A stretch of DNA of 30,176 nucleotides. It comes from Candidatus Nanoarchaeia archaeon. GTDB lineage: Bacteria > Patescibacteriota > Saccharimonadia > UBA4664 > DATIHE01. Under the pieces are notes generated by a model that saw nothing but the letters and a program-made list of their open reading frames with translations, was not told the DNA's origin and did not search any database. Position numbers and translations under genes: made by a program. Each line of letters opens with the position of its first letter. The stretch's first letter is position 1. Shown in pieces: positions 10,380 through 12,583 of the stretch. The stretch is taken from contig DATIHE010000026.1 of the NCBI GenBank assembly GCA_035481015.1, positions 1-30,176 on the forward strand, in the 5' to 3' direction.

Positions 10380-11357
10380 CTACAGATTTGAAGGCAGGCC
10401 CGAGTTAGTCGGAGCAGCCGGCTGGTTTTTGTGTTTGAACAGGCCTGTGAAGCTATTCCAGACTTGAAGCATCTGGTCAGTAAAGCTCGGTGCGTTGCTC
10501 GGCAGCGGCTGGGTCGAGCCGGTTGTCGCCGGCGTGGCGCCCTTGAGCTGTTCGGCGGTCGGGTTAGTCTGTTTAGCCTTAATGATCAGCCGCTTCCAGC
10601 TGGTTCCAGGCGGCGTACAGGTGATCAGGGTCATGGTCGGGTCGCTGGTTTGCGCTAGAACTGTTAAATCGGTTGGCTCGACAATTTTGACCTCACTGAT
10701 TTTGTAGTTCAGCTGCTTGCCCTGGTAATCCACCTGGAATTCGTCACCAACCGCCAGCTTGTCGAGCAGCACAAACACAAATTTATAATTACCTGGTTCC
10801 CACCAGTCGTTCGATGAATGCCCAACGATAACGCTATTGCCCGGCTGGCCCGGGTTGGGCGTATTACCATAGTGTACAACCCCGTTCTCGAGCGCTTTCT
10901 GGATTCTAGTTTCATCAAAGCTTGGCTCAAAGACGATTGGCGCATTAACGTTAATCTTGGGGATGATAATAGTGGACTGGGTGCTGACAGGCTGGGCTAC
11001 CTGTGTGGTCGGAGTAGTCGGCTTATTGGTTAAGTACTGCAACTGACTCAGTAGTACCTGCGATTTAAAGAAAGCCAGCAGGAATAAGAAAGACATAATG
11101 GCCGAAACGATTGGCCGTAATTTGCTAGATTTTACCTTACGGCTACGTCTGGCGTTCTCGGCGGCTGGTGAAACTGGCTTCACCGGCAGTGTCGGTGTCG
11201 CCTGTTGGCCCTGGACGTCAGTCTGAATGCTAAGGGCAGCTATCTTGGCGCGGGCTGCTGCCGCTGACTCTGGCTGATTCTCGCCACCATATGAAACACC
11301 ACCCGGGCCAAGTGGCCGGATGTCTAGGGTATCGCCTGTGGTGTCGTTGGGTTTCAT
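10380..11357 (-). CDS. Sortase
   Basis: LENGVVHY..TPNPGQPGNSVIVGHSS (catalytic His), TLITCTP (catalytic Cys) and Arg in WKRLII; single TM. Confidence 0.92.
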   Translation of the reverse strand: MKPNDTTGDTLDIRPLGPGGVSYGGENQPESAAAARAKIAALSIQTDVQGQQATPTLPVKPVSPAAENARRSRKVKSSKLRPIVSAIMSFLFLLAFFKSQVLLSQLQYLTNKPTTPTTQVAQPVSTQSTIIIPKINVNAPIVFEPSFDETRIQKALENGVVHYGNTPNPGQPGNSVIVGHSSNDWWEPGNYKFVFVLLDKLAVGDEFQVDYQGKQLNYKISEVKIVEPTDLTVLAQTSDPTMTLITCTPPGTSWKRLIIKAKQTNPTAEQLKGATPATTGSTQPLPSNAPSFTDQMLQVWNSFTGLFKHKNQPAAPTNSGLPSNL

Positions 11358-11390
11358 TTTCTACTAGCCTTAGGTATTATTATACAGTTT

Positions 11391-11592
11391 AGGTGGTCGC
11401 TTGCCGCCTGCGAATCGAGAATTATAGCCGATTTGAGATTGGCTGGCAACATCTGGGCACCTTAACCATGTTCCCTTCGCCCCGGCACGTCAAACCAAGC
11501 TTTAGCTGTTTGGCGGGCCGAGAGGAGAAACGCGACGAAAGCCGGAGTAAGTTTATCAGAACTTATGCAGGCTGCAGTGCGCGTTTCGACGA
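11391..11592 (+). ncRNA. Candidate structured non-coding RNA upstream of tRNA-Leu (identity unknown; 6S-like length)
   Basis: End-to-end stem 11398-11411/11567-11581; hairpin CGGC-A-CGTCAAAC...GTTTGGCG-G-GCCG (11483-11520); TAAGTT/AACTTA hairpin; G-U pairs favour the + strand. Confidence 0.5.
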
Positions 11593-11679
11593 GCCGCTGT
11601 GGTGGAATTGGTAGACACGCGGGACTCAAAATCCCGTGTCAGCAATGACGTGTCGGTTCGAGCCCGACCAGCGGTACCA
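11593..11679 (+). tRNA. tRNA-Leu(CAA)
   Basis: Acceptor GCCGCTG/CAGCGGT, D-loop TGGTAGAC, anticodon arm CGGGA-CT-CAA-AA-TCCCG, long variable arm, GGTTCGAG T-loop, encoded CCA. Confidence 0.97.
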
Positions 11680-11680
11680 A

Positions 11681-11712
11681 AGAAAAGGCCCGACATTTAT
11701 CGGGCCTTTTCT
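11681..11712. terminator. Bidirectional terminator between tRNA-Leu and the convergent CDS
   Basis: AGAAAAGGCCCGA-CATTTA-TCGGGCCTTTTCT, perfect 13-bp inverted repeat. Confidence 0.85.
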
Positions 11713-12583
11713 AGAAATCATCCTGTCGCAAAGTATTATCAATAGCTTTGACCAGTCCGCCTACTAATAACACTTCATTGTCCGATTGGGCGACGGTTTC
11801 TCTAGCCTGTCTCAGTGCGTAGGCTCCGGCTGTCAAGGCTTCAAACGGCTTGGAGGGGTTCTGAATCCAAAAGACGCTCGTCAGGCCGATGGCGGCTGGC
11901 AAGAAGAAATCCATGGCGCTAACGCTGGTGGTTAAGCTGATTTTGTCTTCGGCGGCGACGATCAGCTCACGCGAGACCAAGGCATAGTCAGCTTTGCTTG
12001 CTTGTGCCAGTTCCTGCATAATCTCGATCTTATTGGTCACATCGCCGCTTTTGATGCGGATTGGTACTCCGGCGGCTTCGCTAAGGACGAAAATCTGCGG
12101 CATTGTGGCAACTATCAAAGTATTCGGACGATCAATCAGTGCTTTTAAATTGTGCTTCATACTCGTAAACGCGTCACCAAAAGCCACCACGCGGGCCTCG
12201 GCTGATCTGGTAACTAGTGCTTCAGCTAAGATCGAGGTTTCGCTAGAGTTCGACAGATCAGCTCCTAGTGCCAAGGCGTCCGAATCCCCCGCCATTCTAA
12301 GCAACTCACCCAACGCCCCATTGCCCAAAGATCCGGCCGGTGTCGAAGGTAGGAATCGACTGTCAGGGATCTCAGCTAAAAGCGCGCGCAAGCTATCTGG
12401 TAAGGCAAGCGTGCACTGCCCTATGCCAGCAGCTTTAGCGATCTGATAAACGGCTTGGATAACTGAAAAGTGGCCCGGATGCCCGCCTGGGAGCAACAGC
12501 CTGCCGGCTCCGCTCGACCGCAAAGGCCGGTTCCACAAAATCTTAGGGAACAGTGGCTGGTCGGTTTGCTTCAGATAATCCAA
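11711..12583 (-). CDS. Divergent NnrD/YjeF-C (carbohydrate kinase, ribokinase-like fold) family protein
   Basis: GRLLLPGG..., KAAGIGQCTLALP, DSDALALG resemble the NnrD N-terminal half; TTG start 2 nt after the xth stop. Confidence 0.6.
   Translation of the reverse strand: MDYLKQTDQPLFPKILWNRPLRSSGAGRLLLPGGHPGHFSVIQAVYQIAKAAGIGQCTLALPDSLRALLAEIPDSRFLPSTPAGSLGNGALGELLRMAGDSDALALGADLSNSSETSILAEALVTRSAEARVVAFGDAFTSMKHNLKALIDRPNTLIVATMPQIFVLSEAAGVPIRIKSGDVTNKIEIMQELAQASKADYALVSRELIVAAEDKISLTTSVSAMDFFLPAAIGLTSVFWIQNPSKPFEALTAGAYALRQARETVAQSDNEVLLVGGLVKAIDNTLRQDDF

Follow-up and report, generated by a model that had tools for sequence, protein, structure and literature searches.

The window, by which we mean the whole 30,176-nt stretch of DNA analysed, is contig C26 of G000, a 0.64-Mb, 70-contig, 86%-complete assembly from the Saccharimonadia, and DNA of the window occurs in soil metagenome runs. 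The region of interest lies between a sortase-domain gene and a tRNA-Leu(CAA) gene on opposite strands (Table 1). The tRNA gene had been named in a preliminary description of this DNA and was confirmed by both ARAGORN and Rfam. We take the GC-rich hairpin between the tRNA and the convergent ORF to be a probable terminator that works in both directions; it gave sub-threshold matches, on both strands, to the terminator portions of several Rfam models.

Table 1. Features at the tRNA-Leu(CAA) locus, in window coordinates.
Feature	Position	Strand	Basis or remark
Sortase-domain gene	10380-11357	-	Pfam Sortase; adjoins the flagged region (11391-11592) on its 5' side
Start codon of the sortase gene	ATG at 11357	-
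AT-rich patch, -10-like on both strands	11375-11388	both	TATTAT on +; extended TGTATAAT on -, ~22 nt before the sortase ATG
Non-conserved 5' part of the intergenic region (86 nt)	11391-11476	+
Promoter-like TTGCCA-17-TATAAT	11449..11421	-	Promoter scan
Conserved structured module (116 nt)	11477-11592	+	Full-length match to covariance model R1 (1-113), 98.8 bits, E 3e-24
P1 hairpin	11483-11520	+	Alignments, pair counts
Single-stranded purine linker AGAGGAG between P1 and P2	11521-11527	+
P2 rod	11527-11587	+	Covariation, pair counts
P2a	11527-11536 with 11577-11587	+
P2b	AGCC 11540-11543 with GGCU 11570-11573	+
P2c	11547-11554 with 11559-11566	+
3' tail GACGA	11588-11592	+	Ends at the predicted RNase P cleavage site
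tRNA-Leu(CAA), CCA encoded	11593-11679	+	ARAGORN; Rfam tRNA model, 55.9 bits
GC-rich hairpin between tRNA-Leu and the convergent ORF	11681-11712	both	A-run before, T-run after
Convergent ORF (290 aa)	11711-12583	-	No Pfam match

The preliminary description had treated 11391-11592 as a single structured RNA of ~200 nt, favouring the forward strand. Compared with shuffled sequences the forward strand of this region did fold unusually well (z -3.55, with 0/200 shuffles as good), and the fold of the reverse strand was unremarkable (z -1.12). The 3' 116 nt folded alone gave a z of -5.28 (0/200 shuffles as good) compared to -1.76 for the 5' 86 nt (9/200 as good), so that the fold signal was assigned to the 3' part. 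A similarity search with 11358-11700 as the query, covering the window's own genome and 40 relatives, found the tRNA part in all relatives searched. Besides the tRNA, only positions 130-263 of the query (window 11487-11620) gave matches, which lay elsewhere in G000 and in five other families of the order, and blastn likewise returned paralogous copies of 11477-11592 within the same genome. Sequence similar to 11391-11476 was absent from the own genome and the 40 relatives, although this segment may be transcribed as leader. The claim of a structured RNA was therefore retained for the 3' 116 nt, where it is also backed by covariation, and dropped for the 5' 86 nt, which are not conserved. A coding reading was rejected as well: the 73-aa ORF at 11393-11614 runs into the tRNA, and between paralogues there are indels that break the frame as well as paired substitutions.

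Members of the family are 105-135 nt long and consist of two hairpins, and the two ends of a single module are unlike. P1 has a variable, covarying basal stem below a conserved upper part made up of AAAC, a CA bulge, AGC, the loop, GCU and GUUU. The linker AGAGGAG, which resembles a Shine-Dalgarno sequence, holds the most conserved unpaired columns of the family (A 93%, A 97%, G 90%, G 96%, A 91%). The P2 consensus in a 17-copy alignment pairs GAAAC plus N4 with N4 plus GUUU, followed by AGCU with AGCU and a last, variable hairpin. Two 3x3 internal loops with GNA opposite GRA interrupt the rod, giving it a near two-fold symmetry around P2b. The tail reads GACGN and stands at distance 0 from the tRNA +1 in most copies.

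Covariation was assessed on an alignment (A1) of 17 hand-picked copies from 9 genomes, with a structure of 31 pairs. RNAalifold found a compensatory change in 20 of the 26 pairs that it predicted on this alignment. Across the 17 copies 89.8% of the cells of the 31-pair structure were paired, compared to 28-42% when the partners were slid, and 22/31 pairs change on both sides; the observed values were reached by 0/500 shuffles. An alignment of 94 distinct copies, which was fitted to the covariance model and is to that extent somewhat biased towards the structure, had 93.9% of cells paired (34-38% in the slid controls) and compensatory changes in 30/31 pairs. Helices 1-3, which make up P1, were 94-98% paired with compensatory changes present, and helices 4-6 of P2 were 91-94% paired with a compensatory change in every pair. 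The forward strand folded better than its complement in 91/94 copies tested and was the more stable one in 69/71 co-directional and 22/23 inverted copies. It is strongly supported that 11477-11592 is a real, strongly covarying structured RNA element, and the covariation among relatives that the preliminary description had proposed to look for is strong for this module.

All the sequence elements listed for the 200-nt candidate are present where they had been placed. The hairpin described as long and apical is P1, the GTAAGTT/AACTTAT hairpin is P2c, and a helix given merely as an alternative, GAAACGCG/CGCGTTTC (11527-11534 with 11580-11587), is P2a; each of the three covaries in relatives. The proposed TTGGCT/AGCCGG helix is incompatible with P2b, and the AATCG/CGATT and AACAT/ATGTT hairpins both fall within the non-conserved 5' part. 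A 13-bp closing stem (11398-11411 with 11567-11581) can be drawn, but neither the MFE nor the centroid fold contains it. The sequence of its 5' arm is not conserved anywhere else, and the 3' arm shares bases with the covarying helices P2b and P2a.

This stem had been used to suggest a divergent 6S RNA, an identity that we now regard as next to untenable. 6S RNA is a closed rod with a large central bubble, encoded by a free-standing gene that is usually present once or twice per genome. The whole 200-nt region fits in length and a closing stem can be drawn, but RF00013 was unmatched even at E<=10, the closing stem is neither conserved nor compatible with the covarying helices, and the module forms two independent hairpins with no central bubble and has five full copies in G000 that are each fused to a tRNA gene. 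The likeness to 6S RNA comes down to the size of the region originally flagged.

A search of 11300-11720 against Rfam 15 left the module copy unmatched at the gathering score and also at E<=10, and seven diverse copies had no match at E<=0.1. Neither this copy nor the seven matched Rfam ribozymes (hammerhead, twister, pistol, hatchet, HDV-like) or riboswitches, and the Rfam matches around the copies examined were to tRNA and tmRNA only. A full-text literature search found no description of the module in the papers covered.

G000 holds five full copies by model R1, located before tRNA-Leu(CAA), tRNA-Pro(UGG), tRNA-Pro(GGG), tRNA-Gly(GCC) and tRNA-Tyr, and additionally one partial, P1-only copy before tRNA-Trp; about a fifth of its tRNA transcription units carry the module. 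On contig C50 of this genome (3283-3521) tRNA-Thr and tRNA-Trp flank an L33-like short ORF (rpmG; named from its translation). Behind the ORF a solitary P1-type hairpin ends 5 nt before tRNA-Trp, so P1 can be present on its own. At tRNA-Leu(CAA) loci without a full module (L002, L012, L020, L021, L023, L026-L029) the leader has a conserved TATGATAAT-like box and, just behind it, a small hairpin with the CCAAGC signature of the upper P1. P1 may be a leader hairpin of its own, older than the module.

Within the order the module was found in 15/53 genomes with 1-13 copies each and was nearly absent from families f4 (1/26 genomes) and f9 (1/10). Within the class it was present in 54/151 sampled genomes, reaching a maximum of 14 copies in a 0.5-Mb genome, and a 151-genome sample of the phylum added 19 genomes from other classes of Patescibacteria. 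Copy number differs inside one genus (1 compared to 5). The module is a phylum-wide, multi-copy RNA element that has no family in Rfam 15. Carriage by phages was considered and discarded; one pattern was tried and gave three matches in viral contigs, none of which was a model match. The covariance model likewise did not bear out pattern matches in MAGs labelled Nomurabacteria, Oscillospiraceae, Pseudomonadota, Sphingobacteriales and Chitinophaga.

We placed 134 distinct copies against ARAGORN tRNA calls. More than half (71/134; 57 in Saccharimonadia and 14 in other classes) abut the +1 of a same-strand tRNA, and the 57 in Saccharimonadia end 0-4 nt from it, before tRNAs of almost any identity. 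A further 23 copies (9 in Saccharimonadia, 14 in other classes) abut the CCA end of an opposite-strand tRNA, where the junction outside Saccharimonadia reads GACGT|GG. Eight of the 134, all in classes other than Saccharimonadia, sit 0-3 nt before an ATG, and the genes behind them include L27 (rpmA; three genomes), S8 (rpsH), RNase III (rnc) and MraZ (mraZ). Another 14 copies, in Saccharimonadia, are followed by a further module, and one Saccharimonadia copy ends at distance 0 before a tmRNA (Rfam tmRNA). The neighbouring gene is touched by the P2/tail side in every arrangement.

Several local variants of this docking were observed. Tandem arrays in genus g75 (L084, L085, L088-L090, L095) contain 2-3 modules 13-22 nt apart before one tRNA and keep the GACGA tail in the last copy only. 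Before tRNA-His the module ends 3 nt earlier, giving GACGA, CGU and G(-1) (L078, L081, L083, L088, L090, L093, L099). Inverted modules were located at L050, L061, L066, L071, L076, L077, L093, L100 and L101 in Saccharimonadia and at L137, L143-L145, L149, L164, L165, L167, L172, L173 and L177-L180 in other classes, and outside Saccharimonadia they are as frequent as co-directional ones. Most inverted modules in the window's order are a distinct variant with linker AAGUGAGGCUUUG and a tail ending in CAAAAYGAAC.

The exactness of these junctions could be read as the work of an end-defining cassette, either an undescribed self-cleaving ribozyme or a target recognised by a dedicated nuclease, with the cut immediately after GACGN. 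Such a cassette would create mature tRNA and tmRNA 5' ends as well as leaderless mRNAs starting at AUG in Patescibacteria, with the conserved unpaired purines and the exactly docked tail as a catalytic or recognition core. We consider this highly improbable.

The window copy is most likely the 3' part of the tRNA-Leu(CAA) 5' leader, removed by RNase P. The module ends at 11592 and the tRNA starts at 11593 on the same strand, and the genome encodes a bacterial type A RNase P RNA (RF00010; C12:11212-11616, 219.7 bits). A comparison of two genomes of one genus, G002 and G013, points to transcription from the promoter of the tRNA. The -10 box and first leader bases before tRNA-Lys(UUU) are common to both, and after these shared bases the tRNA follows at 11 nt in G002, compared to ~170 nt that end in a module in G013. 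-10-like boxes were found within 50 nt upstream of 29/69 same-strand copies compared to 15% of random windows. The AT-rich patch at 11375-11388 could mark the start of a ~200-nt leader, near 11390, and may be a promoter region shared by the divergent genes; G006 and G010 have a similar patch before their orthologous tRNA-Leu(CAA). Position and the congeneric comparison suggest that the module would be co-transcribed with tRNA-Leu(CAA) as the last 116 nt of its leader. The transcript would then fold, as the covariation shows, into P1, an exposed AGAGGAG tract, the P2 rod and the GACGA tail, and RNase P would cut between 11592 and 11593.

The preliminary description had also offered an undescribed CPR ncRNA released by RNase P cleavage at the tRNA 5' end. 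This agrees in outline with a unit that ends at the tRNA +1, in a genome with RNase P RNA, and that lies downstream of a shared promoter in the congeneric pair. The unit, however, measures 116 nt and not 200 and is not confined to tRNA-Leu, and release by RNase P leaves both the inverted copies at tRNA 3' ends and the copies before start codons unexplained. A stronger form of the idea is a family of trans-acting small RNAs, in which the downstream tRNA serves only as a 3'-end processing signal and the ~120-nt RNA acts elsewhere, for example by binding the 30S subunit through AGGAG or by titrating a protein. The RNase P site would define the 3' end exactly in 71/134 copies, several copies per genome would give a high dosage, and one G000 copy, which starts 9 nt after tRNA-Thr and ends at the tRNA-Tyr +1 and is an internal spacer of a tRNA operon, would be freed by tRNA processing on both sides. 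The copies before start codons, by contrast, remain joined to their mRNA, and on their own strand the inverted copies at tRNA 3' ends lack a processing signal, nor are promoter-like boxes enriched before them. CsrA is the usual partner of GGA-rich sponge RNAs, and a role as a CsrA sponge was dropped with CsrA found in just 1/53 genomes of the order. We rate a trans-acting family as improbable.

Inverted copies often lie inside tRNA operons of the other strand. Only 4/23 have a promoter-like box, which is no enrichment, and in the model-fitted alignment they show 15 G-U pairs compared to 4 A-C mismatches on the strand of the forward fold. That they keep the forward fold without promoter enrichment is explained by neither a leader nor a repeat model. 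A long duplex between back-to-back or flanking copies was considered and rejected, since paired copies have unlike variable stems and each therefore folds on itself.

Taken over the whole family, we lean slightly towards a reading in which 11477-11592 is the RNase P-removed end of a tRNA leader and the family is a portable cassette copied between loci. In each place the 3' tail of the cassette would meet the end of a gene product exactly. In tRNAs the repeat would be tolerated since RNase P removes it; in mRNAs AGGAG would act as the ribosome-binding site, as the closed P2 would bring the tract to ~7-10 nt from the AUG. The 0-3 nt before the ATG leave no room for another Shine-Dalgarno sequence. 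That the family is in addition a self-propagating structured repeat, broadly akin to pneumococcal BOX or Neisseria Correia elements and persisting because it does little harm where it is placed, appears to us an evenly balanced proposition.

Movement is suggested by a filled and an empty site in the same two congeners. Two tRNA-Ser genes are 10 nt apart in G002 and 225 nt apart in G013, where an inverted and a forward module stand back to back in the spacer and meet the CCA of the first tRNA and the +1 of the second to the nucleotide, with neither a duplication nor a remnant of the G002 spacer. In 57 cases compared, the nearest relative of a copy was at the same tRNA in another genome for 8, at another tRNA in the same genome for 13 and at another tRNA in another genome for 36, counts that come from incomplete sampling and short sequences. 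Neither of two filled-versus-empty sites (G002/G013) showed terminal inverted repeats or a target-site duplication. The junction GACGT|GG, which looks as though a tRNA CCA end had served as a primer on the leader, had suggested a retro-element origin; this was rejected, as reverse transcriptase (RVT_1) is absent from G000 and from 11/15 module-bearing genomes of the order. Single-strand transposition of the IS200/IS605 type was likewise set aside; Y1 transposase does not track the module, being absent from the four module-richest genomes (G001, G007, G019, G013), and there is no constant flanking target. Across the 53 genomes RVT_1 and Y1_Tnp, the enzyme families covered, showed no association with the module. 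G000 has a weak Y1 (IS200-like) transposase-domain match in an ORF of ~210 aa (C4:12714-12944; 31.5 bits), and some relatives have similar ORFs of 200-220 aa, a size that would suit a REP-associated tyrosine transposase.

Other observations weigh against a repeat. AGAGGAG, GNAAGCUGRAG (twice) and GUUUGGACGN are kept across classes of the phylum, which is uncommon in a selfish repeat and more in keeping with a host function. In genus g75 turnover is not fast, because several species have the module at the same tRNAs (Pro, His, Lys, Trp). The module could then be a host-selected, cis-acting signal that governs how tRNA, tmRNA and ribosomal-protein transcripts are processed, stabilised or translated, which we regard as possible but rather unlikely. 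P2, as a rod of ~25 bp with symmetric GNA/GRA loops and a palindromic AGCU helix, would be a site for a dimeric dsRNA-binding protein such as RNase III, and P1 together with the AGGAG tract would shield the 5' end from RNase J. Both RNase III and RNase J are present in G000, in which no RNase E/G was found. In Gram-positive bacteria a 5' hairpin with a Shine-Dalgarno-like tract is a classical stabiliser against RNase J, and Bacillus subtilis, with RNase III and RNase J but without RNase E, is the setting where such stabilisers act. Conservation of both sequence and loops across classes, the retention at the same loci in g75, downstream genes that belong to translation and RNA processing (tRNAs, tmRNA, L27, S8, RNase III, MraZ) and the lack of any other Shine-Dalgarno sequence where an ATG follows the tail within 0-3 nt also speak for a signal. 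Against it, only about a fifth of the G000 tRNA transcription units and few genomes of f4 and f9 have the module, a congener manages without it at the same loci (G002/G013), and inverted copies would present a different RNA to any protein.

As unannotated bacterial RNA structures go, the module is one of those better supported by covariation, and a covariance model of it would clear many false calls of 'novel sRNA', '6S-like' or 'leader' in CPR genomes. Genomes of Patescibacteria are very small, yet some carry up to 14 copies of a 120-nt non-coding module at tRNA and ribosomal-protein loci. Should the module serve the host, it would point to an unrecognised layer in the way this lineage, which lacks RNase E, handles its tRNA and ribosomal-protein transcripts. 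Should it be selfish, nucleotide-exact docking on mature tRNA ends in both orientations would be a new way for small elements to choose their sites, and we know of no mechanism for docking of this kind.

Like an ordinary bacterial pre-tRNA 5' leader, the module would lie between a promoter or upstream tRNA and the +1, be co-transcribed and be removed by RNase P. Ordinary leaders are, however, short, unstructured and locus-specific, whereas the module is a 116-nt, covarying element found phylum-wide at many unrelated tRNAs. Early genes of phage T7 are separated by repeated RNase III processing hairpins that form a family with internal loops, and the STAB-SD of cryIIIA is a Shine-Dalgarno-like 5' stabiliser of Gram-positive mRNAs whose purine tract, near a 5' hairpin, is not a local start signal. 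The module, known here from sequence alone, may resemble these systems in its possible working and is not a member of either.

Small RNAs from spacers of tRNA operons exist, such as 3'ETS-leuZ of E. coli (as cited in PMC8144298). Repeated units next to tRNA genes are also known from the E. coli tRNA-linked repeats (TLRs; RrA, RrB and RrF), found downstream of tRNA or 5S genes, whose last 18-19 bp they duplicate (PMC8144298). TLRs and the module are both multi-copy, located in tRNA or rRNA operons, contain GGA motifs and have a largely unknown function. TLRs are co-transcribed and processed (PMC8144298), as the module would be. In contrast to TLRs the module has no copy of a tRNA end in our alignments, is mostly upstream and occurs in organisms without CsrA.

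The pneumococcal BOX and Neisseria Correia (NEMIS) elements are small and contain no genes; they are present in many copies, vary in presence/absence between relatives, and form a stable RNA fold when transcribed. Correia elements have inverted ends and a target duplication, their hairpins are RNase III substrates, and BOX and Correia elements both insert at loosely defined intergenic places. The module is like the BOX, Correia and REP kind of element in its many gene-less copies and in the presence/absence differences between close relatives. It differs from BOX and Correia elements in its nucleotide-exact docking, in having neither inverted ends nor a target duplication, and in a conservation that reaches far deeper.
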